Below are positions 35,930 through 58,653 of a stretch of DNA of 64,000 nucleotides, one piece after another. The stretch comes from Thermoleophilia bacterium (GTDB taxonomy: Bacteria; Actinomycetota; Thermoleophilia; Gaiellales; JAICJC01): the NCBI GenBank assembly GCA_025927685.1, contig JAICKX010000002.1, positions 3,442-67,441 on the forward strand, given 5' to 3'. Each line of letters starts with the position of its first letter. Within the stretch, counting starts at the first letter, position 1. The notes beneath the pieces are model-generated. The model was not told the origin of the DNA. It worked only from the letters and a program-made list of their open reading frames with translations, and searched no databases. Made by a program: the position numbers and the translations under genes.

Positions 35930-36039
35930 TGCTTCCTAGCAATTCGGCACTTGCGTATGCGTTCTTGAGCAACGGGCGCTTCAAGGACACAGGCGGGCCG
36001 GCCGATACATCGGGCACAACCCCCGAGCTGGAGCACACC

Positions 36040-36183: not shown

Positions 36184-36226
36184 CGCCGAATTACCGCAAT
36201 TCGGGCGGGCCGTATCCCCAAACCGG

Positions 36227-36694
36227 GTGATGTCACCCTGCGCGGAAGTCGTCATGATCACGGCCATGTCGACCTTCGTATCCGCCAGGGCGGCGGGTCG
36301 GATCGAGGGGCTCGAGGCGCTCCTCTCGCGCCTGCGACGATGCTCTTCTCCGGCCCAGGCCGAGAACATGGTCGCGTACGCCATCCCAGAGCTGGTCGAC
36401 GCGATCTGGGCCACGCTCTACCTGTCCGACGACGGCCGCCCGCCGGTGGTCTACGGCGACGACGTCTGGCAGCACCTGGCTGACGCGGCCATCGCCCGCC
36501 GGATGCCGTGCGCGACGCGCCGGGACGGGATCGTCACGACGGCGATCCCGATCTTCTCCGACATGGGCGTCGCCGGCGTGCTCGTGATGGCGAGCACGGG
36601 CGAGCTCTCGGACGACGACCAGCGCACGCTGCGGCTCTTCGCCGCGCGCGCCGGGCGCGCGGTCAGGCGGCCCGGGCTCCCCGTCTCGGCCTGA
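36227..36694 (+). CDS. Small GAF-like domain protein
   Basis: LYLSDDGRPPVV..TAIPIFSDMGVAGVLVMASTGELSDDDQRTLRLFAARAG resembles the C-terminal half of a GAF fold. The assignment is weak. Confidence 0.45.
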   Translation: MMSPCAEVVMITAMSTFVSARAAGRIEGLEALLSRLRRCSSPAQAENMVAYAIPELVDAIWATLYLSDDGRPPVVYGDDVWQHLADAAIARRMPCATRRDGIVTTAIPIFSDMGVAGVLVMASTGELSDDDQRTLRLFAARAGRAVRRPGLPVSA

Positions 36695-37787: not shown

Positions 37788-37832
37788 GGCCGCTCAGGCT
37801 ATCCGGGGGGGCGGACGGCTACGGTTCCGGGC

Positions 37833-38177
37833 GTGAGCACGGCCCTCGTCGCACTGATCCTGATCGTCTTCCTGATGGCGTTCGGCTTCGGCCTGCTCGG
37901 GTTCGCGCTCGGCGTCCTCTGGTCGCTCATCTGGTACGGGATCGCGGGGCTCGTGATCGGCGGCCTGGGCCGGGCGGTGGTCTCTGGGCGCCAGGACATG
38001 GGCCTGCTCGAGACCACCCTCATCGGCATCCTCGGCGCGCTCCTCGGCGGCATCGTCGCGAACGACGTCCTCGACGTCGGCTGGCTCGGCCAGTTCCTGA
38101 CCGCGATCATCGTGGCGGCGGTCCTCGTGCTGCTCGTCGACGCGGGTACGCGGCGCAGGACGCGTACGTCGAACTGA
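37833..38177 (+). CDS. GlsB/YeaQ/YmgE-family (transglycosylase-associated) membrane protein
   Basis: GTG 37833 lies within track ORF 36750..38177. Gly-zipper TM segments are WYGIAGLVIGGLGRAV and IGILGALLGGIV. Confidence 0.7.
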   Translation: MSTALVALILIVFLMAFGFGLLGFALGVLWSLIWYGIAGLVIGGLGRAVVSGRQDMGLLETTLIGILGALLGGIVANDVLDVGWLGQFLTAIIVAAVLVLLVDAGTRRRTRTSN

Positions 38178-38200
38178 CACAGCGGCACGATCGGATCGAG

Positions 38201-38273
38201 CGGGGGCGGCAGGATTCGAACCTGCGACCTCGAGCTTAGAAGGCTCTCGCTCTGTCCCCTGAGCTACGCCCCC
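38201..38273 (-). tRNA. tRNA-Arg (anticodon TCT)
   Basis: Reverse complement: acceptor GGGGGCG/CGCCCCC, D-arm GCTC-AGGGGACA-GAGC, anticodon loop CTTCTAA, T-arm GCAGG-TTCGAAT-CCTGC. Confidence 0.9.
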
Positions 38274-38304
38274 GAGGTTGCCGGCTTCGTCCCTGCCGGC
38301 CGGG

Positions 38305-38430
38305 TCAGCGTCTGGCGCGCGAGCTCGTGGCCTCGTCGCCGCGCGCGAGCACGAACGCGACGAGCGCCGAGATCACGACGATCGCGATCACGGGCGCCAG
38401 CGAGATGATTGTCGAGAGGTCGACGCTCAC
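38305..38430 (-). CDS. 41-aa single-TM micro-protein, translationally coupled to the upstream kinase-like gene
   Basis: It is not in the ORF track because it is too short. GTG 38430 overlaps the TGA of the upstream gene (GTGA). It reads VSVDLSTIISLAPVIAIVVISALVAFVLARGDEATSSRARR with high GC3. Confidence 0.3.
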   Translation of the reverse strand: MSVDLSTIISLAPVIAIVVISALVAFVLARGDEATSSRARR

Positions 38431-39644
38431 GGTTCCGTCCCATGGTACCGGCCGTCGAGGAGGGCGGCCAGTGCCGACCCGAAACGGTCGCGAAGCCCGG
38501 TGACCCCGGCGGCGCGCGCCTCGGCGAAGCGCACCGACATCTCGAGCAGCTCCAGCGAGACGACGAGGCGAGCGTCGGAGGCGGGGACGTCGAGCCCGTC
38601 GAGCACGCGCGGGAGCCGCGCGAGGACGTCGGGGACGGCGGAGTCCGGCGGCAGCCCGCGCGCGTTCAGGGCGACCAGCAGGCAGTAGTGGGCGGCGTCG
38701 ACGCCGACCGGCACGTCTTCAGCGGCGCGCTCCCAGTCCCACACCACCAGCCGGCCGCCCACCTCCGCCATGTTCCAGGGCGTCCAGTCGCCGTGGCCGC
38801 GGCCGAAGGTCAGCACGCGCGCGCCGTCCGCCTCCGCGATCCGGTCCGCCATGCCGCGCTGCTCCTCGCCGGCGGACGTGTCGATCCGCTCGCGCACCCT
38901 TCGCCACCAGCCCGACTCGGTCAGGGCGGCCCGCTCGGTCGCACCGCCGAGGGCCAGCTCGCGCGTCGCGGCCGCCGGCGGCTCCGGCGACAGGTGCGGC
39001 CGCCCACCCATCGCCGGAGCCACGGCGGTGACCGCGCTGCCGTCCCAGTCGCCGGCGTGCAGGAGCTCGGGCACGGCGAACGCCGACGGAGGCGAGGCGG
39101 CCAGGCGACGCAGGGCCTCCGCCTCGGCGGCGATCAGCCCGTGGGTGAGCTCGTTCCAGCCCACCTTGGCGAACGCGACGATCCGGCCGTCCGGCGCGGC
39201 CACCTGGACCACCGGCTTCCCGTTGGGCCGGGCCGCTCCCACCCTGACCGCCAGGTCGGCCCGCGGCAGGTCGAGCACGCGCGCCAGATGATGCGAGAGG
39301 ACGAGGTCGGGAAGGTCGGCGTCTTCGACGCCCGGAGCGACCGAGATCGACGCCCGGCCGCGCAGGAGGCGCTGCGCCACGCCGGCCCGCAGCGCGGCTG
39401 CCGCGGCCGCCGCGGCCAGGCGCGCCCGCCGTGGCGCACCGTTGGAGAACTGTGTGACGGCGGCCGCCGCCGGGCCGCGGGCGGAGGCCGGCGCGAGGAT
39501 CTGCGGACGCCGGGCGGAGGGCAGGAGCACGTAGCGCTCGATCGCCCTCCAGCCGGGCGAAACCGGGCCGATCGCGGCCCGGACGCGGTCGTCGGCAGCG
39601 GTCAGGCCGCGGGTGCACGCATCGGCGTCTCGCACGGCCGACAC
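38427..39644 (-). CDS. Aminoglycoside-phosphotransferase-fold kinase-like protein
   Basis: Catalytic loop HGDWTPWN and metal-binding VWDWERA are present. The N-terminal start is uncertain. Confidence 0.7.
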   Translation of the reverse strand: MSAVRDADACTRGLTAADDRVRAAIGPVSPGWRAIERYVLLPSARRPQILAPASARGPAAAAVTQFSNGAPRRARLAAAAAAAALRAGVAQRLLRGRASISVAPGVEDADLPDLVLSHHLARVLDLPRADLAVRVGAARPNGKPVVQVAAPDGRIVAFAKVGWNELTHGLIAAEAEALRRLAASPPSAFAVPELLHAGDWDGSAVTAVAPAMGGRPHLSPEPPAAATRELALGGATERAALTESGWWRRVRERIDTSAGEEQRGMADRIAEADGARVLTFGRGHGDWTPWNMAEVGGRLVVWDWERAAEDVPVGVDAAHYCLLVALNARGLPPDSAVPDVLARLPRVLDGLDVPASDARLVVSLELLEMSVRFAEARAAGVTGLRDRFGSALAALLDGRYHGTEP

Positions 39645-39681
39645 CGTACCGGCTGGGCGCGGAACCGTGTCCGTAGCAGGC

Positions 39682-39709
39682 TTGACGCCTCTATCGTCAG
39701 GGGTACCAT
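39682..39709 (+). promoter_or_regulatory. Candidate sigma-70-type promoter of the polysaccharide operon
   Basis: TTGACG (39682-39687), a 16-nt spacer, then TACCAT (39704-39709). This would leave a leader of about 130 nt before GTG 39848. Sequence pattern only. Confidence 0.3.
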
Positions 39710-39847
39710 TGGCTTGGGAGGCCAGAAAGCTGGACGCGAGGCAATCTCTCCCACCAGCGGCGCTCTCGCACGCGGGCGCCTCGATGACCGAGCTTTTCCG
39801 AGCGGGCCGCGCGGGCTCGATCGCAGACGACCCGAGAGGATTCCACG

Positions 39848-41530
39848 GTGGAAACAGGATGGTATGAGTCGGTCTCGCTGAGCGACTACTTCGGCGTCAT
39901 CGCTCGCCGGAAGTGGATCGTGCTGCTCGTGACGGTGCTGATGACGGTGAGCGCCGTCGCGTACTCGAAGAACCAGACGCCGAAGTACCAGGCGACCGCC
40001 GAGCTCCTGTCGCCCATTCCCGTCAGCAGCTCCTCGAAGTCGGGCATCACCTGGTCGGTCCAGAACGCGCCGCTCGCCAAGACGCTCAAGATCGCGAACC
40101 TGGTGCTCAACGGCAAGCCGGAACCGCTCCCGAAGCTGCCGCCCGACGTCATCGTGAACTCGCCCGACTTCCCGGCCCGCCCGGCGGGCGGCCTCGACGG
40201 CCAGCAGCTGTACAACGCGACGGGGGTTGTGCCAAACGCGACCAGCGACGGCATCGACTTCACGGTCAGCGCGTCCGATCCAGTCCTGGCAGAACGGCTC
40301 GCGACCGCCTGGGCCGTGACGTACGGCAACTACGTCACCTACCAGAACATCCGGCAGACGGCTGAGAAGTTCATCAGCATCGACACGCAGTTACACCCGG
40401 CCTTCTACACGGTGGGCGCCACGAACCCGAAGCTGTGCACGGCGGGCACCTCCGCCGGGTGCCTGACGCAGGCCCAGATCGACACGATCAACAGCCAGGA
40501 GGCGGGGCCGCGGAACGCGCTTCTCACCGCACCACGCCCGCCGGATGTCCAGGCCGCGTCGAACGCCAACCAGACCCAGCCGCAGACGACCCGCAACACG
40601 ATCCTCGGCCTCGTGCTGGGCCTGATCCTCGGCGTGATCCTGGCCTTCATCCAGGACCTGCTCGACAAGCGCATCCGCACCGCCGACGAGGTCGGCCGGC
40701 GCCTGCGCGTGCCGCTGCTGGCGTCGATCCCGTCGCCGCCGCGGTCGCTGCGCGACCATCCGCTCGTGCTGCTCGCGCCGCGCGGTGGGGCGCAGGGCCC
40801 GTCCGCCGAGGCCTACCGCATCGCCAAGCTGAACCTCGGCACCGTGATGCGCGCCAACCGGGCCAAGGCCGTGATGTTCGTGGCGGCCGCCGACTCCGAG
40901 GGGACGTCGCGCACGGTCGCCAACATGGCCGTCGCGCTGGCTCGCTCCGGATCCCACGTGGTCCTGGTGGACGCGAACATGCGCCGCCCCGCGATCGACC
41001 GGTTCTACGGGCTCGACGACCGCACCGGCCTGTCCGACATCCTGAGCGGCCACGGTGACCTCGCCGACGCGCTCACGATCGTCGACGTCGGCGGCGAGCA
41101 GCCCGACGATGTCGGTACCAACGGCCGGGCCGCAACCGGCGGCCTGCTCGAGGTGCTTCCCGCGGGGCCGACGCCTGCGGATGCGGCCGACCTGCTCGAG
41201 TCGCGCGCCATGTCCGAGCTCCTGGGCGAGCTGCGCGGCCGCGCGGACGTGGTCCTGATCGACGCGCCGCCGATGCTGCCCGTGACCGATGCGATGATGC
41301 TCGGCTCGAAGGTGGACGGCGTGATCGTGGTCGCCCGCGCCCGGCTCGCGAGCCGGCCGCACATGGTGGCGATGGCGCGCGCGCTCGACGCCTGCGCGGC
41401 GCCCACCCTCGGCTTCCTCTTCACCGGCGTCTCGGTGTCGGAGGAGAACGAGTACGGCGGCTACGTCGGGGTCGGCGGGGCCGGCCTCTCCCACACGCGC
41501 ACGCCCCAGCGGGAGCGCGAACTGCTGTGA
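39848..41530 (+). CDS. Polysaccharide co-polymerase (Wzz domain) fused to a BY-kinase-like P-loop domain
   Basis: Wzz-type N-terminus DYFGVIARRKWIVLLVTVLM and a second TM ILGLVLGLILGVILAF. The P-loop domain has a degenerate Walker A (AADSEGTSRT), A' (VLVDANMRRP) and Walker B (VVLIDAPPMLPVTDA). Confidence 0.8.
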   Translation: METGWYESVSLSDYFGVIARRKWIVLLVTVLMTVSAVAYSKNQTPKYQATAELLSPIPVSSSSKSGITWSVQNAPLAKTLKIANLVLNGKPEPLPKLPPDVIVNSPDFPARPAGGLDGQQLYNATGVVPNATSDGIDFTVSASDPVLAERLATAWAVTYGNYVTYQNIRQTAEKFISIDTQLHPAFYTVGATNPKLCTAGTSAGCLTQAQIDTINSQEAGPRNALLTAPRPPDVQAASNANQTQPQTTRNTILGLVLGLILGVILAFIQDLLDKRIRTADEVGRRLRVPLLASIPSPPRSLRDHPLVLLAPRGGAQGPSAEAYRIAKLNLGTVMRANRAKAVMFVAAADSEGTSRTVANMAVALARSGSHVVLVDANMRRPAIDRFYGLDDRTGLSDILSGHGDLADALTIVDVGGEQPDDVGTNGRAATGGLLEVLPAGPTPADAADLLESRAMSELLGELRGRADVVLIDAPPMLPVTDAMMLGSKVDGVIVVARARLASRPHMVAMARALDACAAPTLGFLFTGVSVSEENEYGGYVGVGGAGLSHTRTPQRERELL

Positions 41531-41976
41531 GAGTCGTGCTCGTCTGCTCGTCGGGCGGCCACCTCATCCAGCTTCACCAGTTGAAGCCGTGGTGGGAGAA
41601 GCACGAGCGCACCTGGGTCACGTTCGACCTGCCCGACGGCCGCTCGCTGCTCGAGGGTGAGGACGTCGTGTGGGCGCACCACCCGACGACCCGGAACGTC
41701 CGAAACGCCTTCCGCAACCTCATGCTGGCCGTGCGGCTCCTGCCGCGCTACCGGCCCGACGTGGTCGTCTCCGACGGCGCCGGGGTGGCGTTCCCGTTCT
41801 TCGTCGTCGCCCGCCTGCTTCGGATCAAGACCGTGTACCTCGAGGTCTACGACCGGATCGACTCGGCGACGCTCACCGGCCGCCTGTGCCGGCCGCTCTC
41901 GAGCCTCTTCCTCGTGCAGTGGGAGGAGCAGCTTCGCCTCTATCCCGGGGCGAAGGTCATCGGGGGGCTCTTCTGA
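41527..41976 (+). CDS. Alg14-like (PssD/Cps14F-type) glycosyltransferase membrane-anchor/activator subunit
   Basis: GTG overlaps the upstream stop (GTGA). VLVCSSGGHLIQL and TYLEVYDRI-type segments fit the Alg14 family. Confidence 0.8.
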   Translation: MRVVLVCSSGGHLIQLHQLKPWWEKHERTWVTFDLPDGRSLLEGEDVVWAHHPTTRNVRNAFRNLMLAVRLLPRYRPDVVVSDGAGVAFPFFVVARLLRIKTVYLEVYDRIDSATLTGRLCRPLSSLFLVQWEEQLRLYPGAKVIGGLF

Positions 41977-42548
41977 GCGCCGACCTCCCCCTCGTCTTCG
42001 TGTCGGTGGGGACGGACTTCCACCCGTTCGACCGGCTGTGCCGGTGGGTCGACGCATGGCTGGCCGACGGCGGCGACGAGATCGCCCGCTGCTTCGTCCA
42101 GACCGGGACGTCGACGCCGCCGACCCGCGCGGAGCACGGCCAATACCTGGGCCAGGAGCAGATGGAGGCGATGATGCGGGAGGCCGCCGTCGTCGTCTGC
42201 CACGGCGGGCCGGGAACCATCATGCTGGCGTCGACGATGGGCAAGCGGCCGATCGTCGTGCCGCGGCGCAAGGCGGCCGGCGAGCACGTCGACGACCACC
42301 AACACGCCTTCACCCGCCGGATCGCGGCGGACGGCGCGATCATCCTGGCCGAGTCGGAGCCGGACTTCCGCGGCTACCTGAGCGGCGTCCTGCACGCCAA
42401 CGGGGGCGAGCCGCTGCCGCCCCGGCTCACGAGCCCCGCCGACGCCGTGCGCCGCTTCGAGGAGCTCGTCCAGGAGCTCTTCGAGCCGGAGGAGGCCGCA
42501 GGCTCAGCTCCCGACCCCGCGCCGCCGGCGTTCCGCACGAAGGTATGA
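41973..42548 (+). CDS. Alg13-like (PssE/Cps14G-type, GT28 C-terminal domain) glycosyltransferase catalytic subunit
   Basis: LVFVSVGTDFHPFDRL and VVCHGGPGTIM are present. The only canonical in-frame start (GTG 42000) would cut the first beta strand. CTG 41973 overlapping the upstream TGA is my preferred start, but it is uncertain. Confidence 0.7.
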   Translation: MSADLPLVFVSVGTDFHPFDRLCRWVDAWLADGGDEIARCFVQTGTSTPPTRAEHGQYLGQEQMEAMMREAAVVVCHGGPGTIMLASTMGKRPIVVPRRKAAGEHVDDHQHAFTRRIAADGAIILAESEPDFRGYLSGVLHANGGEPLPPRLTSPADAVRRFEELVQELFEPEEAAGSAPDPAPPAFRTKV

Positions 42549-43477
42549 CGCCGGCGCAGGTCCTCTACATCGGCGGCTGGGGCCGCAGCGGGTCGACGCT
42601 CCTCTCGCATCTCCTGGGCGGGCTCGACGGCATGGTGTCGGTGGGCGAGCTGCGCTACGTGTGGCAGGCCGGCCCGGCCGCCAACGAGCTCTGCGGGTGC
42701 GGCCGGTCGTTCGCGGACTGTCCGTTCTGGCAGGCCGTGGGCGAGGAGGCGTTCGGCGGCTGGGAAAGGGTGGACGTCGCCGAGGTGCTCCAGTTGGAGG
42801 CCGACGTCCTACGCCACCGCAACATCCCGCTGCTCGCGTTCCCGCGGCTCTTCCCGGGCCACGCGCGCAAGGTCGACCGCTACGCCGAGCTGACCGCGCG
42901 CGTGTACGAGGCGATCCTGGCCGTCTCGGGCGCGCGCACGGTCGTCGACTCCACCAAGAACCCGCCGTATGCCTACTTCCTGCGCCGGGCGCCGGGTGTC
43001 GGCCTGCGCGTGCTCCACCTCGTGCGCGACAGCCGCGGCGTCGTTTATTCGTGGATGAAGAAGGTGGAGCGGCCCGAGATCACCGGCGACGCCGCCTTCT
43101 TCGAGGAGTTCAGCCCGTGGAAGGCCGGGCTCCGCTGGATGGAGTGCAACCTGGCCTTCGACGTCCTGCGGCTGCGGACGCCGACCGCCCGCATGCGCTA
43201 CGAGGCGCTCGCGGCGGAGCCGGCGGGCGAGGTGGCACGCGCGATGCGGTCGCTCGGCGAGGAGATCGACGCGACCGCGCTCGCCGGTGGCTCGGTCGAG
43301 GTGGCCGGCCAGCACAGCGTGCGCGGGAACCCGATGCGGTTCGCCCACGGCAGGCAGCGGGTGAAGGCCGACGAGGCGTGGCGGCGCGACATGGCCCGCC
43401 CGGTGCGGCGCACGGTGCTCGCGCTCACGTGGCCGCTCCTCTGGCGCTACGGCTATCTGCGAGGGCGGCATGTTTAG
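42545..43477 (+). CDS. Sulfotransferase (Sulfotransfer_3-like)
   Basis: ATG overlaps the upstream stop (ATGA). 5'-PSB-like loop YIGGWGRSGSTLL and 3'-PB-like HLVRDSRGVVYS are present. Confidence 0.8.
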   Translation: MTPAQVLYIGGWGRSGSTLLSHLLGGLDGMVSVGELRYVWQAGPAANELCGCGRSFADCPFWQAVGEEAFGGWERVDVAEVLQLEADVLRHRNIPLLAFPRLFPGHARKVDRYAELTARVYEAILAVSGARTVVDSTKNPPYAYFLRRAPGVGLRVLHLVRDSRGVVYSWMKKVERPEITGDAAFFEEFSPWKAGLRWMECNLAFDVLRLRTPTARMRYEALAAEPAGEVARAMRSLGEEIDATALAGGSVEVAGQHSVRGNPMRFAHGRQRVKADEAWRRDMARPVRRTVLALTWPLLWRYGYLRGRHV

Positions 43478-44801
43478 GGTCCCGGCGGACGCCGTCGACA
43501 TGCGCGTGCCGCGGGAGTACGTGCTCCCGCGCGGCTGGCAGGCCTTCGCGATCGTGGGCCTGATCCCGCTCTGGTGGCTGATCGGCGCGTCGTTCTTCAT
43601 GTGGCCGCTGATCGCCGCGCCGCTCATCGCGGCCATGGTCGTGCGCGGCCGGATCCTGGCCCCGCGCCGGTTCGGCATCTGGCTGCTCTTCATCCTGTGG
43701 GTGATCGCCTCGGGCGTCGAGCTCAGCGACCCCAGCCGGGCGCTGGCGTGGGGGTGGCGGCTCTCGTTCTACATCGCCGGGGCGGCGGTCTTCCTCTACC
43801 TGATCAACGTGCCCGAGCGGCGCATCTCGACGCGGTCGATCGTGAACGCCATGGCCGCCCTGTGGGTGATGGTCGTCGTGGGCGGCTGGCTCGGCGTCGC
43901 CTTCCCCGGCATGAACTTCGCGAGCCCGATGGAGAAGCTCCTCCCGCACAGCCTCGCCGAGAACCAGTATGTGTACGCGCACGTCCACCTGGAGTTCGCC
44001 CAGGTGCAGCACTTCCTCGGGTTCCCGATCGGGCGCCCCGAGACGTTCTTCGCATACACGAACGCGTGGGGGTCGGCGTTCGCGATGCTGGCGCCGTGCG
44101 CGATCTGCTCCATGCTCCACACCGGGTCGCGGGGCTGGAAGATCATCCTGCGCTGCGCGATGGCGGCCTCGATCGTGCCGGTCGTCTTCTCGCTCAACCG
44201 CGGCCTCTGGCTCAGCCTGGGCCTCGCGCTCATGTACGCGATGTTCCGGTTCTGGCTGCGCGGCGACTTCCGCCAGGCCCTGAAGGTGATCCTGGCGTTC
44301 GCCGTCGTCGGGGCCGTGCTGGTCGCGAGCCCGCTCGGCGACCTGGCCACGAGCCGGTTCTCGCACAAGACGGGCGACACCGGCCGCGTCCAGCGCGACC
44401 TGGGCGCCCAGGAGAAGATCGCCGACTCGCCGATCCTCGGATTCGGGGCGCCCCTCGGCGCGGTGCAGACCCCGGCGCACAAGCAGTCGAACCTGGGCAC
44501 CGAGAGCGAGATCTTCCTGCTCGTCTTCTCCCACGGCGTGCCGGGGCTGGCGCTCTTCCTGATCTGGATGTTCTACACGCTCTTCCGCTCGGGGAGGTGG
44601 CGATCGCCGTGGGGGTTCTGGGCCCATATCACCATCCTCGTGGCCTGCATCCAGCTTCCGTACTACGACATCACCGAGCGCGTCCCGCTGGTGATGGTGG
44701 CGGCTGCCATCGCCTACCGCGAGATCGCCCGCAACCCCGAGCCGGAGCCCTCGACGCGGGAGCTGCGGCGGGCCCGCCGGCAGGTCCTGGTCCCCGCGTG
44801 A
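43470..44801 (+). CDS. Wzy-type polymerase / O-antigen-ligase-family membrane protein
   Basis: About 10-12 TM segments. FSLNRGLWLSLGLAL and ESEIFLLVFSHGVPGLALFL resemble the Wzy_C core. It overlaps the previous gene by 8 nt; an alternative ATG is near 43500. Confidence 0.75.
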   Translation: MFRVPADAVDMRVPREYVLPRGWQAFAIVGLIPLWWLIGASFFMWPLIAAPLIAAMVVRGRILAPRRFGIWLLFILWVIASGVELSDPSRALAWGWRLSFYIAGAAVFLYLINVPERRISTRSIVNAMAALWVMVVVGGWLGVAFPGMNFASPMEKLLPHSLAENQYVYAHVHLEFAQVQHFLGFPIGRPETFFAYTNAWGSAFAMLAPCAICSMLHTGSRGWKIILRCAMAASIVPVVFSLNRGLWLSLGLALMYAMFRFWLRGDFRQALKVILAFAVVGAVLVASPLGDLATSRFSHKTGDTGRVQRDLGAQEKIADSPILGFGAPLGAVQTPAHKQSNLGTESEIFLLVFSHGVPGLALFLIWMFYTLFRSGRWRSPWGFWAHITILVACIQLPYYDITERVPLVMVAAAIAYREIARNPEPEPSTRELRRARRQVLVPA

Positions 44802-45619
44802 CGACTGCGTTCGAGGGCAAGACGCTCGTCTTCGTCGGCGGCCTGCACAGAAGCGGCACGTCGCTCCTTCACCGCTGCCTGGCCGAGCATCCCGACGCGA
44901 GCGGCTTTCGGGAGACCGGCGTTCCCGAGGACGAGGGCCAGCACCTCCAGTCGGTCTACCGGCCGGCGCGCGCGCACGGCGGCCCCGGCCGCTTCGGCTT
45001 CGACCCCGGCGCGCACCTCACCGAGGGCTCCCCGCTCGTGAGCGACGAGAACCGCGCCAAGCTGGCCGCGGACTGGAGCCCGCACTGGGACCTGAGCCGG
45101 CGGGTGCTCGTCGAGAAGTCGCCGCCGAACCTGATCCGGGGCCGGTTCCTCCAGGCGATGTTCCCGGGTGCACGGCTTGTCATGATGATGCGCCACCCGA
45201 TCGCCGTCGCGTGCGCGACCCGCAAGTGGTCGTGGACCTCCTACACGGAGCTCGTCGAGCACTGGCTCGTCTGCCACGAGACCCTGATCGGCGACGCGCC
45301 GCACCTCCGCGATCCGGTGATCCTGCGCTACGAGGACCTCGTGGCGGACCCGGACCGCGTGCTCGAGGCGGCGTTCCGGGCCGCGGGCCTCGAGCCGCAC
45401 CCCAGCGGCATCACCGTGCGCACCGGCATCAACGACGCCTACTTCCGGCGCTGGTCGGGGCGGCGCTGGAACCCGGTGAAGCGGGCCGACACCGACCGGG
45501 CCGTGCACCGGTTCGAGGAGCGCGTGCGCCGCTTCGGCTACAGCCTGAAGCAGCCCGGCCGGCTCGAGGTCCCCCCGGAGCCCGCGATGGCCCGGTCGCT
45601 CGCGGCATCGGAGACCTGA
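44798..45619 (+). CDS. Sulfotransferase (second, divergent type)
   Basis: GTG overlaps the upstream stop (GTGA). FVGGLHRSGTSLL P-loop and LVMMMRHPIAVA are present. Confidence 0.75.
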   Translation: MTTAFEGKTLVFVGGLHRSGTSLLHRCLAEHPDASGFRETGVPEDEGQHLQSVYRPARAHGGPGRFGFDPGAHLTEGSPLVSDENRAKLAADWSPHWDLSRRVLVEKSPPNLIRGRFLQAMFPGARLVMMMRHPIAVACATRKWSWTSYTELVEHWLVCHETLIGDAPHLRDPVILRYEDLVADPDRVLEAAFRAAGLEPHPSGITVRTGINDAYFRRWSGRRWNPVKRADTDRAVHRFEERVRRFGYSLKQPGRLEVPPEPAMARSLAASET

Positions 45620-46530
45620 TGATGCGGCGGGAGCGCGGCGCACGAAACGACAACTACTCGCGCGTGCCCGAGCCGCTGGCCGACGCCGTGAAGGCGGCGT
45701 ACGTCGGCGCGCGCATGCTGAACGCGGGCTCGCGGCCGCTGCCCGACTTCCTCATCATCGGCGCGCAGCGGTGCGGCACGACCTCGCTCTACCGGTACCT
45801 GGCCCAGCACCCGCAGGTGATCGGGGCGGCGCCGTCGAAGGGCGTGCACTACTTCGATGTCAATCACGAGCGGAGCCTGCGCTGGTACCGGGCCCACTTC
45901 CCGACGCGGCGCCGGCGCGACCACGCGGGGAGCGCCGCCGTCACGGGCGAGGCGAGCCCCTACTACGTGTTCCACCCGCACGGGCCGGACCGGGTGCGGG
46001 CCGCCGTCCCGAACGCCGGCCTGATCCTCATGCTCCGCGATCCCGTCGTCCGCGCCTTCTCCCAGTACCAGCAGGAGTACGCCCGGGGCTTCGAGGACGC
46101 CGAGACGTTCGAGCGGGCGCTCGACCTGGAGCCGGGCCGCCTGGCCGGCGAGCGCGAGCGGATGCTGGCGGATCCCGGCTACGACAGCCGGGCGCTCCAG
46201 CACCACGCCTACGCTGCCCGGGGCGAGTACGCGCCCCAGCTCGAGGCGTGGCGGGCCCGTTTCGACCCGGCCCAGATCCACGCCATCGTCGCCGAGGAGT
46301 TCTTCGCCGACCCGGCCGCCGCATACCGGGGCGTGCTCGACTTCCTCGGCCTGCCCATGCCGCCGCGACCGCCGCAGTTCAAGGCGTTCAACGCCCGCCC
46401 CGCGGGCGGGATGGCGGCGGAGACGCGCGAGCGGCTGGCGGCGCGCTTCGCCGAGCCGAATCGACGCCTCGAGAAGCTCCTGGGCCGTCGGCTGGCATGG
46501 ACGAGTCCCAACGGGTCCTCGGATGGCTGA
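45619..46530 (+). CDS. Sulfotransferase (Sulfotransfer_1 / N-sulfotransferase-like)
   Basis: TGATG overlap with the upstream stop. FLIIGAQRCGTTSLYRYL and LILMLRDPVVRAFSQY are present. Confidence 0.8.
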   Translation: MMRRERGARNDNYSRVPEPLADAVKAAYVGARMLNAGSRPLPDFLIIGAQRCGTTSLYRYLAQHPQVIGAAPSKGVHYFDVNHERSLRWYRAHFPTRRRRDHAGSAAVTGEASPYYVFHPHGPDRVRAAVPNAGLILMLRDPVVRAFSQYQQEYARGFEDAETFERALDLEPGRLAGERERMLADPGYDSRALQHHAYAARGEYAPQLEAWRARFDPAQIHAIVAEEFFADPAAAYRGVLDFLGLPMPPRPPQFKAFNARPAGGMAAETRERLAARFAEPNRRLEKLLGRRLAWTSPNGSSDG

Positions 46531-48094
46531 CGAGGGCGTCCGGGCCGAGCGCGAGTCCGATCTGAAGAGCGTCGCCCGCGGCGGCACGCTCAACTTCATC
46601 GGGTCGGTCATGAACGGCGTGCTCCAGTTCGTGCTCGTCGTCGTCGTGACGCAGGCGCTCACGAGGCGCGAGGCCGGGGCGTTCTTCGAGGCGGTCGCGC
46701 TCTTCATCATCCTCTCGAACACCTGCGAGCTGGGCGCCGACACCGGCCTCACCCGCATGATCCCGCGCCTGCGCGTGCTCGGCCGGATCCCCGACATCCG
46801 TCGCAGCATGGCGGTCGGGATCCTGCCCGGCTTCGTGGCGGGCATCGTGCTCGCCGAGATCACGTTCTTCCTCGCCGACCCGCTGGCGGCGATCTTCACG
46901 AACCACCAGCACACCGACGCCGACCGGGTGGCGACCTACATCCGCGTCCTGGCCGCGTTCCTGCCCGTCTCGGCGGCGTACACGGTCTCGATCGCGGCCA
47001 CCCGCGGCTTCGGCACCATGCTCCCGAACGCGGTCGTCGACCGGATCGGGCGGGCCGTCCTCCAACTGGCCGGCGTCGGCGCGGTCGTGATCGCGGGCGG
47101 CGGCGCCTTCGGGGTGGCGCTGGGCTGGGGCGTGCCGATCCTGATGGCGTTCGCCGTCGCCCTGGTCTGGCTGGTGCGGCTCATCACCAAGGTCGAGAGC
47201 ACGCCCGGCGAGCGGGCGGCGCCGACGAGCGCGAGCGCCCTCTGGTCGGAGTTCTGGAGGTTCACGGCGCCACGCGGGCTGACGGGCGTCTTCCAGGTGA
47301 CGATCCTCTGGATCGGGACGCTGCTCGTGGGCTCGCTGCTCGACGCGGCCCACGCCTCGGTCTACACCGCGTCCACGCGCTACCTCACCGCCGGCTCGGT
47401 CGTGAACTACGCCATCATCACGGCGATCGCGCCGAAGCTCTCCGAGCTCCTCTCCGGCGGCGAGAACCAGCGGGCCCGCGACGTCTACCAGGTGGCGACG
47501 TGCTGGCTCATGACGCTCGCATGGCCGCTCTACTTCACGCTCGCGATCTTCGCGCCGCTGCTCCTCAAGGTGTTCAAGCCGGAGTACGTGGCCGGCGCCT
47601 CGTCGCTCGAGGTGCTCGCCGTGGCGATGCTGGTCGCGACCGCGATCGGCCCGGTCGACATCGTGCTCCTGATGGGCGGCCGCAGCATGTGGAACCTCTT
47701 CAACGTCCTCGTCGCCCTCGCCCTGAACCTGGCGCTGAGCTTCCTGCTCGTGCCGCGGATCGGGATCGCGGGAGCGGCGGTTGCGTGGGCGGCGTCGATC
47801 CTCTTCAACAACATCGCCCCGCTGGCCGAGGTCCGCGCGTTCCTCAAGCTGCACCCGTTCGGGCGCGGGTTCCCGGTGGTGAGCACGAGCGCCGCGATCT
47901 GCTTCGGCGCCTTCGGGATGGCGATCCGGCTGAGCGTGGGGCTCAGCATCCCGTCGTTCGTCGTCTTCCTGATCGTCGCGAGCGTCGCCTATGCCGCGGT
48001 CATGTGGCGGTTCCGGAGCCGCGCCGAGCTGGAGCTCCTGGCCGGCACGCTGCGTGCCCGTCGCGGCCGCCGGGCACGGCCGGTCACCGTGTAG
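46523..48094 (+). CDS. Wzx-type flippase (MOP-superfamily polysaccharide biosynthesis protein)
   Basis: 523 aa with about 14 TM segments and an N-terminus GGTLNFIGSVMNGVLQFVLVVVVTQAL typical of the Polysacc_synt family. It overlaps the previous gene by 8 nt. Confidence 0.8.
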   Translation: MADEGVRAERESDLKSVARGGTLNFIGSVMNGVLQFVLVVVVTQALTRREAGAFFEAVALFIILSNTCELGADTGLTRMIPRLRVLGRIPDIRRSMAVGILPGFVAGIVLAEITFFLADPLAAIFTNHQHTDADRVATYIRVLAAFLPVSAAYTVSIAATRGFGTMLPNAVVDRIGRAVLQLAGVGAVVIAGGGAFGVALGWGVPILMAFAVALVWLVRLITKVESTPGERAAPTSASALWSEFWRFTAPRGLTGVFQVTILWIGTLLVGSLLDAAHASVYTASTRYLTAGSVVNYAIITAIAPKLSELLSGGENQRARDVYQVATCWLMTLAWPLYFTLAIFAPLLLKVFKPEYVAGASSLEVLAVAMLVATAIGPVDIVLLMGGRSMWNLFNVLVALALNLALSFLLVPRIGIAGAAVAWAASILFNNIAPLAEVRAFLKLHPFGRGFPVVSTSAAICFGAFGMAIRLSVGLSIPSFVVFLIVASVAYAAVMWRFRSRAELELLAGTLRARRGRRARPVTV

Positions 48095-48100
48095 CCGGCG

Positions 48101-49333
48101 CTACTGGGCGCCGCGCAGCGCGTTCTCGAGCTGGATCGCCTCGGCCGTCGGCGACCCGGTGCCCTGGAGCAGGCCGAAGCCGCCGCCCCGGGCCAGGTTC
48201 CAGCGCGTCCACGAGATGTTCTCGCTGGAGAAGATGTCGAGCATCTGGCGCTGGTACTCGAGCGCGCCCGGGACGCCGGTGTGGATGCCCCACTCGCCGA
48301 CGAGGAGCGGGATCTTCCACTCCGCCGTCCGCCGCAGCGGGACGTCCAGGACGGCCGCCTGCGAGGCGGCGGTGCCGGCGTAGCGGTCGGCCTTCTGGTT
48401 GTGCGTCGCGGGCCAGCTCGGCGTCCAGTCGTTGCCGTTCGAGGTGAGGCCGATCCCGGGGATGCCGTTGAAGTAGTCGTGGTAGTCGAGCGCCAGGTGG
48501 TCGAGCGGGCCGAAGGCCTTGAGATCGGCGGTGCCGACGCCCTCGCCGCCGCCGCGGCACATGATGAAGACGGTGCGGCCGGGGTCGACGGCCCGGATGA
48601 CCTTGCGGATCTCGGCCTGCCACTGGAGCATCGTGTCGGTGGCCGCCGTCGAGTCGCCGAGACCGCCCGGGTGTGGCTCGTTGAAGACCTCGTACCCGAC
48701 CACGTTCGGCGCGTCCGCGTAGCGCTGCGCGATCATGGCGGCGAACGCCGCGTAGGCATCCTCCGACCGGGCGGCCTCGTTCGTCCAGAACGCCTTCTTG
48801 GCGTCCGACTCGCCCCGCTTCGTGTCGGGGAAGCGGCCGTCGGCGTAGTACCAGCCGGGCACGCCCGAGGCGTTGCAGTCCGCCGCGTCGTGCTTGCACT
48901 CGACCTTGGCGAAGTAGGGCGACCAGTGGAACTGGTGGAAGTCGATGAGGACGTTCACGCCGGCCTTCTGGAAGTCCGCCACGGCACCGTCGAGCTGCTG
49001 GAGGAACGCCTCGTCCCAGTGGTGCGTCGCACCGTCGGGAGCGGTCGGCTCGACCGTGCTCCACGGGGCCATGATGCGCACGAAGTTCGCGCCCATCGAC
49101 GCCGCCTTGTCGTAGACGAGCGCGCTCGAGTTGACCGCCACGTTCACGCCGCGGAGGACGACGGGCGTGCCCGTGCGCGTGTCGACGAAGCGGCCGTCCT
49201 GGGTGGTGATCCACGGCGCGACGGCGTTTGCGGCACGGTGCGGGAGCTTCACCCGGTGCGGCTTCGCGGTCGAGCCGCAGCCGGCCGCGACGAGGGCGAG
49301 CGCGAGCCCGGCCGAAAGGAGCCTCGTCCACAT
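48101..49333 (-). CDS. Glycoside hydrolase family 5 lipoprotein (paralog of 961..2151)
   Basis: Lipobox LVAAGC. VLIDFHQ, acid/base VFNEPHP and nucleophile LLVGEWG are present. Confidence 0.8.
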   Translation of the reverse strand: MWTRLLSAGLALALVAAGCGSTAKPHRVKLPHRAANAVAPWITTQDGRFVDTRTGTPVVLRGVNVAVNSSALVYDKAASMGANFVRIMAPWSTVEPTAPDGATHHWDEAFLQQLDGAVADFQKAGVNVLIDFHQFHWSPYFAKVECKHDAADCNASGVPGWYYADGRFPDTKRGESDAKKAFWTNEAARSEDAYAAFAAMIAQRYADAPNVVGYEVFNEPHPGGLGDSTAATDTMLQWQAEIRKVIRAVDPGRTVFIMCRGGGEGVGTADLKAFGPLDHLALDYHDYFNGIPGIGLTSNGNDWTPSWPATHNQKADRYAGTAASQAAVLDVPLRRTAEWKIPLLVGEWGIHTGVPGALEYQRQMLDIFSSENISWTRWNLARGGGFGLLQGTGSPTAEAIQLENALRGAQ

Positions 49334-49787
49334 GATCCCAGTGTACGGTCGGCGGACGCGTTGGGAAGCGGGCTGTCATACTCGTTCAATCGAGACCGAT
49401 CCCGCAGCCCTGGCCCGGACGTACGTCGAGACGATCACGCGCGTGGCCGCGAACGGCGACGACGACGATGTGCTGGATCTCGTCCACCCGGCGGCGGAGC
49501 TCAGGCCCATCATCACGGGCGAGGTGCACCGCGGCCGGGAGGGCGCCGCGGCCTGGATCCGGGCGGCGCGCGAGGCGCTCGTCTGGGAGCCCGTCATCCG
49601 GCGCGTCGTCCGCGTCGACGACACCACCGCGGTCGCGATCATCCATCTGCACGCGTCCCGCATCCACCAGGGGATCGTCGACTCGGAGATCGCCTGGGTG
49701 GCCGAGTTCGACGACGGGCTGCTGCGCCGGGCGACGGCGTACTCGAGCGTGGACGGCCTGCCCGAGAACGTGCGGGCCGCGCTGTAG
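49332..49787 (+). CDS. SnoaL/NTF2-like small protein (start uncertain)
   Basis: DPAALARTYVETITRVAANGDDDDVLDLVHP...IAWVAEFDDGLLRRATAY fits an NTF2-like fold. The first ~19 codons after ATG 49332 have poor GC3. The next canonical start, GTG 49443, would truncate the fold. Confidence 0.45.
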   Translation: MIPVYGRRTRWEAGCHTRSIETDPAALARTYVETITRVAANGDDDDVLDLVHPAAELRPIITGEVHRGREGAAAWIRAAREALVWEPVIRRVVRVDDTTAVAIIHLHASRIHQGIVDSEIAWVAEFDDGLLRRATAYSSVDGLPENVRAAL

Positions 49788-49793
49788 CGGCGT

Positions 49794-49822
49794 GCAACAT
49801 CGGTGTCAGGCACCGATGTTGC
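49794..49822. terminator. Bidirectional stem-loop between convergent genes
   Basis: Perfect 12-bp stem GCAACATCGGTG / CACCGATGTTGC with a 5-nt loop. Confidence 0.55.
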
Positions 49823-49838
49823 GGGCGGCCGTCCCAGC

Positions 49839-50993
49839 CTACTCGGTGAACTCGGCGAAGCCCTGCTGGCTGCGGCCGCCGATCCGCGTGAAGTCGCCGC
49901 CGGCGGCGAGCACGGTGCCCGAGCCGGTCAGCGCGAACACGCCGAGGGTGCTGTTGGCGCTCGGGTTCCAGCTCAGCAGCGAGCCCGTCGTCTCGTCGAC
50001 CGCCAGCAGCTTGTGGCGCGTGATCGGCGTGGTGCACGTGTGCTGTCCGCTGCGCATCCCGCAGTAGTTGTCGAAGTGACCGCCCACGTAGACGACGCCG
50101 TCAAGAGTCGCGATCGCCTGGGCGTTGCCGTTGGTGCCCCCCTGCCAGACCGTGGCGCCGGTCGTCAGGTTGAGCTCGGCGAAGTTCCCGCCGCCGCCGG
50201 CGCCGGCGAGGAAGACGCCGTTCGCGTCGACCGCCATGTCGACGACCGCGTAGGAGGGGCCGTGCGAGAACGAGGAGATCGGCGCGCCGGAGGCCGTGTC
50301 GAGCGCGGCGACGTGCCGGCGACTCGTGCCGTTGACGGTCGTGAAGTTGCCGGCGACGTAGACGCGGCTTCCGTCCGCTGCCATGTCCACGGCCTTCACG
50401 ACGTCATCGGCGGAGGGCGTCCACGTCGTGATGAGCGCTCCGCTTGTCGCATCGACCGCGGCGAGGTTGGCGCGGGGGATGCCGCTGACGGTCGAGAAGT
50501 TGCCGCCGGCGTAGAGGGTGTTGCCGGCGAGCGCAAGGGAGTTGACGCTTCCACTCGGGCGAGGGTTGAAGCCGGGGACCACCGCACCGATGCTCGGGTC
50601 GACCGCCGCCAGGCGCGTCCGCGAGGTCCCGCCGACGTTCGAGAACGAGCCGCCCAGATAGACGCGGCCGTTGCCGACGGCCAGCGACTGCACGGTGCCG
50701 TTCACGTCCGGGTTCCACGGCAGCACCTGGCCGGTCGCGAGGCTCAGCGCCGCCGCGTGGTTCCGGGTCACGCTGCCGGACGACGATCCGGCCGGGCGCA
50801 CGGCGGTGAACTGGCCGCCGAGGTAGATGACGCCGCCCTGGATCACGATCACGTTCACGCGGCCGTTGGTCTGGTAGGTCGGGACGGGCGCCGAGTGGAC
50901 GACGGCAGCCTCCGCGGCAGGAGCCGCGAACGCTGCGACCACCAGGACCGCGGCGGATGCGATCGCACGGCGAAGCGTCCTCTTCCCGAACAT
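49839..50993 (-). CDS. Secreted beta-propeller repeat protein
   Basis: Only the C-terminal 384 aa of track ORF 49839..51500 look real, starting at ATG 50993. Signal peptide plus about 7 repeats of the form GG.F..V.G..R..LAA.D..TG....W.P. Confidence 0.7.
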   Translation of the reverse strand: MFGKRTLRRAIASAAVLVVAAFAAPAAEAAVVHSAPVPTYQTNGRVNVIVIQGGVIYLGGQFTAVRPAGSSSGSVTRNHAAALSLATGQVLPWNPDVNGTVQSLAVGNGRVYLGGSFSNVGGTSRTRLAAVDPSIGAVVPGFNPRPSGSVNSLALAGNTLYAGGNFSTVSGIPRANLAAVDATSGALITTWTPSADDVVKAVDMAADGSRVYVAGNFTTVNGTSRRHVAALDTASGAPISSFSHGPSYAVVDMAVDANGVFLAGAGGGGNFAELNLTTGATVWQGGTNGNAQAIATLDGVVYVGGHFDNYCGMRSGQHTCTTPITRHKLLAVDETTGSLLSWNPSANSTLGVFALTGSGTVLAAGGDFTRIGGRSQQGFAEFTE

Positions 50994-51070
50994 GCGTGAC
51001 CCCCAGATGAACCGGTTCCCCGACACCAGGGTACGCGGCCGCGCCCGGCGGGACAAGCGGTTGAATTTCG

Positions 51071-51868
51071 CTACCCGGCGAGGTGGCGGAGCACATCCGC
51101 CTGCTGCGGGTCGTCGGCGATGCCCAGGTACGCCCCGCGGATCAGCGTCCACGCCCGGATCCGGGCCTCGTCGAGCCCGGTCGCCGCGAACGCCGCGATC
51201 CTCCGCTCCGTCCGCTCCGCGGTCATCGCCGAGTCGAGCGGGTTCCAGAGGAAGCTGGGGACGTCGAACTCCGGCTCGCCGAGCATCGCCTTGGTGTCGA
51301 TGGCGACGTACCGGTCGCCGTGCCGGAGGATGTTGTGGTGGTGGAAGTCGCCGTGAACGAGCGTCGCGCGGCGGGGCTCGAGCTCGGCGTAGAGCTCGCG
51401 GGCCAGGGCGATCAGGCCGGCGCCGTCGCGCTCCGCGTGGTCGAGCCAGACCGGGACGTGGTCGCCGATCCACCGGAACGGCGCGCCGGCCGGTCGCCAC
51501 AGCCGGTGGCCGGTCTCGACGGCGACCGCGGTCGCCTCGTCGTCGGGGAGGCCGGAGATGTCGGTGCCGGGATCGGCCCGCTCGACCAGGAGGGCGCGCC
51601 GGGGGGCGTCCCGGCGCAGCAGCCGCACGGCCCCGTCGCCGCCCCAGAGCTGGAGCGCGTCCGCCTCGTGGTCGGACTCGTCGTCGTGCTCCCAGGCGAC
51701 CTTGAGGACAGCGTCAGCCCCCGCCGGGGCCACGAACGAGTAGCGGGAGAGCGCGAAGGGCGGGCCGAGCTCGAGGCCCCAGTCCGCCGCGACCTCGGCG
51801 GCGCGCTGCGCCATCCGGCGCATGTCGTCCGGCGAGGGCCCGTCGTCCGGTGCGTCCATCTTCGCCAT
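51071..51868 (-). CDS. Aminoglycoside/streptomycin-type phosphotransferase (APH(6)-like)
   Basis: ATG 51868 lies within track ORF 51071..53182. LVHGDFHHHNIL catalytic loop and AIDTKAMLGEPEFD are present. Confidence 0.75.
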   Translation of the reverse strand: MAKMDAPDDGPSPDDMRRMAQRAAEVAADWGLELGPPFALSRYSFVAPAGADAVLKVAWEHDDESDHEADALQLWGGDGAVRLLRRDAPRRALLVERADPGTDISGLPDDEATAVAVETGHRLWRPAGAPFRWIGDHVPVWLDHAERDGAGLIALARELYAELEPRRATLVHGDFHHHNILRHGDRYVAIDTKAMLGEPEFDVPSFLWNPLDSAMTAERTERRIAAFAATGLDEARIRAWTLIRGAYLGIADDPQQADVLRHLAG

Positions 51869-51904
51869 GCGGCTCCCGCGTTCGCGAACCGACGAGCCGG
51901 TAGT

Positions 51905-58596: not shown

Positions 58597-58653
58597 ACCA
58601 GGACTGGTCGGCCCGCGTCGCCGGGGATGGATGGCCCCTTCGGGGGATGCGCG

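Follow-up and report, generated by a model that had tools for sequence, protein, structure and literature searches.

What does an operon build when it encodes the flippase, the polymerase and the chain-length determinant of a polysaccharide pathway, a single split glycosyltransferase and three sulfotransferases? The question is raised by a locus in a 64-kb window (the whole stretch of DNA analysed here, about 55 genes of which were scanned with Pfam) from an uncultured member of the Gaiellales. From our analyses, we consider it likely that the locus is a self-contained set of genes that modify, export and polymerise a sulfated polysaccharide of the cell surface or the extracellular space, assembled along the Wzx/Wzy route, with sulfation being a prediction here as it is in Actinoplanes missouriensis, the host of wps-1, the one member of this locus family that has been studied genetically. 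The reading is based on profile hidden Markov models (HMMs), motif alignments to solved sulfotransferases, a fold model of the sulfotransferase ST-A and comparative genomics. The locus itself is confirmed and its functional reading is well supported in silico; it is not a first, but a compact, strongly conserved Gaiellales variant of an actinobacterial family of sulfotransferase-bearing Wzx/Wzy loci.

The eight plus-strand genes of the operon span positions 39848-48094 (Table 1). Open reading frame listing and direct reading of the junctions agreed with an earlier, sequence-only reading of this DNA in the extent of the gene chain and in the six stop/start overlaps that it had listed: GTGA at 41527 (Wzz/Alg14), ATGA at 42545 (Alg13/ST-A), 8 nt at 43470/43477 (ST-A/Wzy), GTGA at 44798 (Wzy/ST-B), TGATG at 45619 (ST-B/ST-C) and 8 nt at 46523/46530 (ST-C/Wzx). 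At the remaining junction, a CTG at 41973 overlaps the Alg14 stop codon TGA at 41974-41976 (CTGA). Comparison of the junctions over 50 loci showed that this position is conserved in the Gaiellales and is a canonical GTGA in three other loci (L041, L060 and L062), while in a further one (L002) an ATG lies four codons 5' of the conserved Alg13 strand LPL[VI]F. A start at the next canonical GTG (42000) would delete this first strand, and CTG 41973 is therefore preferred; it is probably the Alg13 start, a rare start codon used via translational coupling. All seven junctions are thus likely to be coupled, and the gene calls together with the overlapping junctions indicate a single translationally coupled operon. 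The gene for a lipoprotein of glycoside hydrolase family 5 (GH5) converges on the operon and begins 6 bp beyond the end of wzx at 48094. While the earlier list of eight genes and the GH5 gene was correct, it missed a conserved, divergently oriented core member upstream of the operon, a kinase-like protein of 405 residues that we designate U400. An Rfam scan of positions 36000-52000 detected one tRNA only and no riboswitch or leader RNA upstream of the operon.

All three sulfotransferases pass the threshold of the Sulfotransfer_3 profile PF13469 (cutoff 27 bits), ST-A marginally, and ST-C in addition matches PF00685 (60.6 bits, cutoff 22). They are almost unalignable to each other (best pairwise BLASTP E-value 2e-4), in line with the dissimilarity noted from the sequence, and a hydropathy scan detected no hydrophobic segment in any of the three. 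Their 5'-phosphosulfate loops, GRSGST in ST-A, HRSGTS in ST-B and QRCGTT in ST-C, align to PRSGTT of the tyrosylprotein sulfotransferases (TPSTs) and to KKGGTR of the heparan sulfate 3-O-sulfotransferase (3-OST) 3-OST-3, and motif conservation is high over 97 ST-A, 34 ST-B and 58 ST-C orthologs. The 3'-phosphate Arg...Ser motif is clear in ST-A (HLVRDSRGVxxSW) and ST-C (MLRDPVVRAFS); ST-B has the Arg (MMMRHP, opposite LMVRDG), and its alignment is gapped around the position of the Ser. The strings previously quoted as loops for 3'-phosphoadenosine 5'-phosphosulfate (PAPS) and as Arg motifs were all found in the sequence, and their proposed alignment to solved enzymes held for the loops of all three proteins and for Arg...Ser in ST-A and ST-C, but for ST-B only as far as the Arg.

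The sulfotransferase fold was modelled for ST-A, whereas ST-B and ST-C were placed by sequence alignment to solved sulfotransferases. As a single sequence, ST-A yielded only noise against the PDB sequences; a profile of 23 family sequences matched the sulfotransferase domains of OLS and CurM, TPSTs and SULT1A1, with E-values of 3.5e-5 to 1e-3 overall and of 3.5e-5 to 3e-4 for the OLS/CurM domains and the TPSTs. The AlphaFold2 (AF2) model of ST-A has a mean predicted local distance difference test (pLDDT) value of 91.2, and its Foldseek matches were TPST1/2, the CurM/OLS sulfotransferase and mycobacterial Stf9 (probability 1.0, TM-score 0.55-0.61). The motifs GRSGST, GE35, CGCG..C, DSTK and HLVRDSRG..SW are invariant. 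Natural Alg13::ST-A fusion proteins of about 480-500 residues are found in several organisms (P0217-P0221, P0229, and positions 9497-10945 of L083), which ties ST-A to the product of the split glycosyltransferase. To our knowledge, fusion of the Alg13 half to a sulfotransferase is not known among the characterised PssE, Cps14G and WelK members. A separate feature of ST-A is a cysteine cluster, CGCG..F..C.FW (residues 50-62), which lies between the PAPS loop and the core, is invariant throughout the alignment of ST-A with 22 relatives and is perhaps a site for a metal.

ST-C is, as judged by its alignments, a carbohydrate sulfotransferase. Its PDB matches include the bacterial sulfotransferase 3rnl (E-value 2.6e-22), human 3-OST-3A1 (1.6e-21 over about 210 residues) and N-deacetylase/N-sulfotransferase NDST1 (about 6e-12). 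Aligned to 3-OST, it retains the phosphosulfate loop (GAQRCGTTS/GVKKGGTRA), the position of the catalytic Glu (GEASPYY/MEKTPSY) and the 3'-phosphate motif (MLRDPVVRAFS/VVRDPVTRAIS; core RDPVVRAFS/RDPVTRAIS), and differs in the replacement of the loop lysine by arginine (QRCGT versus KKGGT), as in TPST-type enzymes. ST-C is soluble and cytoplasmic, presumably acting on a lipid-linked unit, whereas the animal heparan sulfate enzymes 3-OST and NDST reside in the Golgi and act on the finished chain. It was found in 58 of 84 loci, mostly adjoining U400. The best PDB match of ST-B is TPST2 (E-value 1.5e-5), with GGLHRSGTSL/GGVPRSGTTL, EKSPPN/NKDPF and MMMRHP/LMVRDG aligned.

The arrangement of these genes recurs widely. 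Our survey included one genome per species, with co-occurrence clustering over all genes of 84 loci, and the window proteins were run by tblastn against 80 fetched loci. ST-A relatives occur in at least 374 species-level genomes of the Actinomycetota; homologs of ST-A and ST-B are plentiful, and the nearest named ones belong to Gaiellales metagenome-assembled genomes (MAGs). Contigs with the same ten genes in the same order show 69-84% identity and differing flanks. The gene order is repeated in dozens of genomes at protein identities of 45-97%, depending on the gene, which indicates that the arrangement of the cassette is not due to chance. We distinguish a type I locus, with the order U400 (-), Wzz, Alg14, Alg13, ST-A, Wzy, ST-B, ST-C, Wzx and GH5 (-), from a type II locus with a looser core (ST-A, Wzy, U400, ST-C and Wzx) in other Actinomycetota. 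Type I, the gene order for which a search in relatives had been proposed, is present in about 31 species, all Gaiellales/Thermoleophilia wherever the order is named, and two further, more distant copies were also found. The DNA of the window is 83-89% identical to that of the nearest carrier genomes and thus represents a related but distinct species. Counted over the 84 loci, the genes that co-occur with ST-A are those for Wzx (63), U400 (59), ST-C (58), Wzy (57), Wzz (56), Alg14 (51), Alg13 (48), GT2 (40), ST-B (34), GH5 (27), GH26 (22), phosphoesterase (20), a Bac_transf primer (18), GT26 (13), CysN (8), CysQ (7) and CysD (7).

The less frequent partners bear on the sulfate donor. The fullest type II locus, in a Streptosporangiaceae MAG (L072), contains a phosphoglycosyl transferase (PGT), CysQ, CysD, CysN, ST-A, GT2 and GH26, and on the opposite strand a methyltransferase, Wzx, ST-C, U400, Wzy and Wzz. 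The PGT-CysQ-CysD-CysN block is present in L038, L056, L058, L059, L070, L072 and L083. The CysN proteins of the related loci have only 415-430 residues, from which we conclude that they do not contain an adenosine 5'-phosphosulfate (APS) kinase domain; nor was a canonical APS kinase detected in the loci with the block. The linkage of ATP sulfurylase and 3'-phosphoadenosine 5'-phosphate phosphatase to this gene set is the strongest in silico argument for the use of PAPS by the sulfotransferases. Together with the HMM matches, the motifs and the ST-A fold, the linked CysD, CysN, CysQ and primer genes of the relatives support the sulfated Wzx/Wzy glycan proposed earlier for the window. The Gaiellales form is the smallest version seen: besides Wzx, Wzy and Wzz, it has one split glycosyltransferase, the three sulfotransferases and a single kinase. 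The PGT-CysQ-CysD-CysN block often lies beside pth, the gene of ribosomal protein L25 and prs.

Genetic support comes from wps-1 (AMIS_7280-7380) of Actinoplanes missouriensis, described in June 2026 (Appl Environ Microbiol, PMC13390465). This cluster encodes WpsA (GT2), WpsB (sulfotransferase), WpsC (GT26), WpsD (DUF4262), WpsE (GH26), WpsF (methyltransferase), WpsG (Wzx), WpsH (heparan-sulfate-type sulfotransferase), WpsI (protein-kinase-like), WpsJ (Wzy) and WpsK (Wzz), and is adjoined by AMIS_7390, a gene of the CysN/APS-kinase family (PMC13390465). The cluster is required for sporangium formation, its product is predicted to be a sulfated polysaccharide, and deletion of wpsA, C, G, H, I, J, K or AMIS_7390 results in squashed sporangia, as does deletion of the whole cluster (PMC13390465). 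That loss of the heparan-sulfate-type sulfotransferase, the kinase-like protein, Wzx, Wzy, Wzz or the CysN-family protein reproduces the whole-cluster defect supports our reading of the window. The sequence-only reading knew of no such cluster in high-GC Gram-positive bacteria; this claim is outdated, since a homologous cluster type has been described and mutated gene by gene.

The window and wps-1 have in common Wzx, a heparan-sulfate-type and a second sulfotransferase, a kinase-like protein, Wzy, Wzz and a clan GH-A glycanase, an equivalence that we base on the domain descriptions in the paper and on related Micromonosporaceae and Streptosporangiaceae loci rather than on direct alignment. 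The order WpsE-K is identical in L072 and in a Dactylosporangium locus (L085), the proteins of which are 26-48% identical to those of the window; the Micromonosporaceae and Streptosporangiaceae versions of the locus correspond to wps-1 gene by gene. In the window, the Alg14/Alg13 pair replaces GT2 and GT26, GH5 replaces GH26, and three sulfotransferases are present instead of two; the methyltransferase, DUF4262 and the linked CysN of wps-1 are absent, the kinase gene precedes the operon in divergent orientation, and Wzz has lost the lysine of its Walker A motif. The hosts also differ, an uncultured member of the Gaiellales without known sporangia versus a sporangium-forming Actinoplanes.

Further afield, synechan (xss) of Synechocystis sp. 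PCC 6803, a chemically verified Wzx/Wzy exopolysaccharide, is the best-characterised bacterial sulfated exopolysaccharide pathway (eLife 2021, PMC8205485). It resembles the window in that dedicated sulfotransferases act before export in a Wzx/Wzy system, but belongs to another phylum and is much larger, also encoding numerous glycosyltransferases, a component for export across the outer membrane and regulators of its own. Sulfotransferases are likewise encoded, according to the literature descriptions from which we draw the likeness, in the sulfated capsule loci of the Gram-negative marine bacteria Vibrio sp. KMM 8419 and Cobetia marina KMM 1449, the products of which are structurally proven (PMC11641403, PMC11766843). 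A literature search on Gaiellales and sulfotransferases yielded nothing.

Table 1. Positions and supporting evidence of the genes of the sulfotransferase-bearing locus and an adjacent possible accessory gene, numbered along the window.
Feature	Position	Strand	Evidence or remark
U400, APH-fold (eukaryotic-like) kinase	38427-39644	-	Family alignment, AF2, Foldseek; divergent from operon
Wzz-type co-polymerase with C-terminal BY-kinase-type P-loop domain	39848-41530	+	Pfam Wzz 37.1 bits
Alg14/PssD/Cps14F-like subunit (membrane-anchoring, acceptor-side half of split glycosyltransferase)	41527-41976	+	PF08660 47.4 bits
Alg13/PssE/Cps14G-like catalytic subunit of split glycosyltransferase	41973-42548	+	PF04101 (Glyco_tran_28_C) 47.8 bits
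ST-A, divergent Sulfotransfer_3 clade, cytoplasmic	42545-43477	+	PF13469 27.6 bits
Wzy-type polymerase (O-antigen polymerase/ligase superfamily)	43470-44801	+	PF04932 32.0 bits
ST-B, TPST-like sulfotransferase, cytoplasmic	44798-45619	+	PF13469 84.1 bits
ST-C, heparan-sulfate 3-O/N-sulfotransferase kind, cytoplasmic	45619-46530	+	PF13469 70.5 bits
Wzx flippase (MOP superfamily)	46523-48094	+	MatE 27.5 bits; orthologs annotated PF01943 Polysacc_synt
GH5 lipoprotein, predicted secreted retaining β-glycanase	48101-49333	-	PF00150 100.2 bits
DUF5122/Rax2-like β-propeller, secreted, possible accessory member	49839-51026	-	PF17164 35.9 bits

The remaining proteins of the cassette suggest how such a polymer might be assembled. 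Wzx, Wzy and Wzz/polysaccharide co-polymerase genes are co-encoded, which is the gene set of the Wzx/Wzy pathway; simple hydropathy scans gave 14 overlapping hydrophobic windows in Wzx and nine in Wzy. Scored with NCBIfam models, the Alg14-like half exceeds the equivalog cutoff of PssD/Cps14F (NF041549, 119.8 bits, cutoff 110), the Alg13-like half stays under that of PssE (NF041548, 66.5 bits, cutoff 120), and both match the WelK model (83.7 and, for the Alg13-like half, 78.9 bits). The pair thus resembles PssD/PssE of Rhizobium, Cps14F/Cps14G of Streptococcus pneumoniae and the fused WelK/SpsK, WelK being a β-1,4-glucuronosyltransferase. PssD/PssE, Cps14F/G and WelK enzymes add the second, β-1,4-linked sugar onto a lipid-linked primer.

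The protein at the head of the operon had been called a P-loop co-polymerase. Its Wzz and P-loop domains were both recovered, with two hydrophobic segments and a TIGR01007 score of 102.9 bits, under the cutoff of 108. Bacterial tyrosine kinases (BY-kinases) carry a Walker A motif GxxxxGK[ST] and a C-terminal tyrosine cluster, and the window protein has neither. Its Walker A region (residues ~346-360) reads EGTS or EGVS and has no lysine in the window and in every Gaiellales ortholog, whereas several relatives outside the Gaiellales retain GEGKST and YYYY tails; the C-terminus keeps a conserved EYGGY...RE(R/T)ELL, with two tyrosines left in EYGGY. The loss of the Walker A lysine implies that the P-loop domain is probably inactive as a tyrosine kinase, and chain-length control in the Gaiellales, as far as the sequences indicate, is probably independent of Wzz autophosphorylation. 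Beyond the operon, the GH5 protein has the lipobox LVAAGC and the catalytic motifs NEP and GEWG. GH5 occupies this place in the cassette in 27 loci, and other Actinomycetota have GH26 there instead.

In the mechanism that we propose, a phosphoglycosyl transferase encoded elsewhere in the genome would load the first sugar on undecaprenyl phosphate, and Alg14/Alg13 would add the second, probably in β-1,4 linkage. As this is the sole glycosyltransferase of the locus, the repeat is probably a disaccharide, and a β-linked backbone would fit the conserved retaining β-glycanase (GH5, or GH26 elsewhere). ST-A, ST-B and ST-C would sulfate the lipid-linked unit in the cytoplasm at different positions, using PAPS, and U400 would most likely phosphorylate the same intermediate. 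The unit would then be flipped by Wzx and polymerised by Wzy, with chain length set by the Wzz-type co-polymerase with its degenerate ATPase domain, and the GH5 lipoprotein may trim or release the polymer outside the cell.

Several points weigh against this reading. Sulfate on the products of the locus family is a prediction, and the Actinoplanes authors themselves await its verification (PMC13390465). As the sequence-only reading had noted for the primer and the nucleotide-sugar genes, Pfam scans of the 64-kb window detected neither a Bac_transf or WecA-type primer nor nucleotide-sugar enzymes; nor did they detect the PAPS-synthesis and related genes (CysC, CysN, CysD, CysH and CysQ). A priming transferase was also not found within ±10 kb of the Gaiellales copies of the cassette. 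For many O-antigens the initiating enzyme is encoded away from the locus (wecA). ST-A clears its Pfam threshold by 0.6 bits and the Wzy_C match by 0.3 bits. The closest solved relatives of ST-B are protein-tyrosine sulfotransferases, relatives of ST-B at about 56-60% identity are also found outside polysaccharide loci (L004), and the homology to the Wps proteins runs through the Dactylosporangium and Streptosporangiaceae loci and domain descriptions rather than direct alignment.

The alternative that survives best, though we regard it as unlikely, is a short sulfated glycoconjugate instead of a long polymer, with the Wzy_C protein being a ligase or oligosaccharyltransferase that acts onto lipid, protein or cell wall. 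Besides polymerases, PF04932 takes in O-antigen ligases and O-oligosaccharyltransferases, and the score of the window protein hardly exceeds the cutoff of 31.7 bits. A single glycosyltransferase and the absence of a primer from the locus would also suit a short glycan, and the nearest solved structures to the GH5 protein are glycolipid-cleaving endoglycoceramidases (Rhodococcus endoglycoceramidase II, E-value 7e-13), followed by endoglucanases. However, 56 of 84 loci begin the operon with a Wzz-type chain-length determinant, a kind of protein that goes with polymerisation, the locus has a conserved neighbour in an endo-acting glycanase (GH5 or GH26), and the Actinoplanes relative genetically resembles a matrix polysaccharide cluster.

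A second alternative retains a polymer and concerns the role of U400. A single U400 sequence matched nothing in Pfam or the PDB; some of its homologs match PF01636 of the aminoglycoside phosphotransferase (APH) family, and the family alignment contains a full kinase catalytic set in the invariant residues K160, E174, HGDWTPWN (284-291) and VWDWER (301-306). The AF2 model (pLDDT 90.4) found APH(3'), maltokinase, glucosamine kinase, homoserine kinase and fructosamine-3-kinase as its top Foldseek matches. A U400 profile recovered 1,775 clusters at E ≤ 1e-30 from 1.84 billion representatives, so U400 represents a large unnamed family; it has no Pfam model of its own. Natural fusions join U400 to sulfotransferases (P0365, P0451, P0476), Wzz (P0469) and Wzx (P0481).

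On the alternative view, which we consider improbable and slightly more so than the short glycoconjugate, the product would be a bacterial polyanion akin to glycosaminoglycans, its β-linked disaccharide repeat bearing as many as three sulfates, and U400 would be a non-canonical APS 3'-kinase that makes PAPS locally. This would account for loci with CysD, a CysN without kinase domain and CysQ but without CysC, and for the sulfotransferase fusions in three independent proteins. The complete related loci L058 and L072 have CysD, a CysN of 416-430 residues and CysQ and no canonical CysC. U400 is the sole kinase always present; no canonical APS kinase was found among the unlabelled genes of the most complete related loci, which were DUF3048, NmrA, MarR, TNT, GH26, CBM96, GDSL lipase and phosphoesterase. 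Against this role speak the fusions of U400 to Wzx and Wzz, as well as the phosphoesterase beside the glycanase, both of which point to a phosphorylated glycan. A secreted PF04185 phosphoesterase adjoins the glycanase in 20 loci of its gene cluster and in L057. For these reasons, we favour U400 as a kinase for the lipid-linked glycan, the most likely of three readings; in the third, it would be a trans-acting kinase on the Wzz tail.

It is still less probable that one or more of the sulfotransferases, notably ST-B, act on protein tyrosine, lipid or a small metabolite, so that the glycan would carry fewer sulfates or none. The TPST matches of ST-B and the TPST and CurM/OLS matches of the ST-A fold would be compatible with such substrates, as would the distribution of ST-B, which is largely limited to the Gaiellales form of the cassette and missing from most locus versions elsewhere. 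One ST-B relative with 60% identity (L004, 10001-10783) is encoded between patatin/phasin genes and an HMG-CoA reductase gene, with no polysaccharide locus, so the ST-B clade extends beyond glycan clusters. On the other hand, all three sulfotransferase genes are translationally coupled within the operon, between the glycosyltransferase, Wzy and Wzx genes, the Alg13::ST-A fusions tie ST-A to the glycosyltransferase, and ST-C falls within a carbohydrate sulfotransferase family. Moreover, the Sulfotransfer_3/TPST-like fold is widely found among bacterial enzymes whose substrates are not proteins, such as the mycobacterial Stf enzymes. A RaxST-like, tyrosine-sulfated peptide system was considered for ST-B and dropped as the main reading, because every Gaiellales copy has ST-B translationally coupled to its neighbours Wzy and ST-C. 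That sulfation is idle, with PAPS not made in the organism or the sulfotransferases using another donor, is very improbable: cysC, cysN, cysD and cysQ are absent from the 64 kb and from ±10 kb of every Gaiellales copy, but PAPS genes may well be encoded apart from the locus, CysD, CysN and CysQ do accompany related loci, and about 31 species retain all three sulfotransferase genes unbroken at 58-93% identity, their cofactor motifs invariant, which would hardly be expected of idle genes.

Whereas animals and algae commonly make sulfated polysaccharides, such polymers are rare among bacteria other than cyanobacteria, and their documentation there is poor. The Gaiellales/Thermoleophilia carriers of the cassette, about 31 species, belong to an abundant, almost uncultured soil lineage. 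If the proposed function is correct, the matrix of soil actinobacteria would regularly contain densely sulfated polymers akin to glycosaminoglycans, which would matter for the aggregation of soil, the binding of cations and the cycling of sulfur. The minimal Gaiellales form is an attractive starting point for the microbial production of defined sulfated glycans, and the analysis also reveals in U400 an unnamed kinase family that is functionally tied to sulfotransferases.

Around the cassette, the DUF5122/Rax2-like propeller protein has an N-terminal hydrophobic segment and relatives in 17 loci, and in L037 (14744-17227), L042 and L048 a larger propeller protein is encoded between U400 and ST-C. 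Directly downstream of U400 are a tRNA-Arg(TCT) gene (38200-38273, -) and then a DNA N6/N4-methyltransferase gene (36663-37787, -); in more distant Gaiellales, a LuxR-type response regulator and a GAF histidine kinase take their place. The adjoining tRNA-Arg and DNA methylase genes had raised the possibility of a recent mobile island, which we rejected: the G+C content is about 72% throughout the window, with a flat composition, and the flanks, from about 33.7 to 53.8 kb, recur in close relatives. One distant copy of the locus (L088, 3018-10981 and 12240-19813) has no called Wzx gene, a shortened kinase and adjoining phage-like integrase and tail genes, and may be decaying or an assembly artefact. 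At the start of the window, a second GH5 lipoprotein adjoins a PF04185 phosphoesterase (1-939, +, and 961-2301, -); the two GH5 proteins are 30% identical (E-value 3e-27), and a GH5-phosphoesterase pair directly follows the cassette in about 20 other genomes. Further downstream, at 55712-59526 and 61597-62307, the window encodes PAS-STAS, PAS-GGDEF-EAL (cyclic-di-GMP), a second STAS and RTX-repeat proteins.

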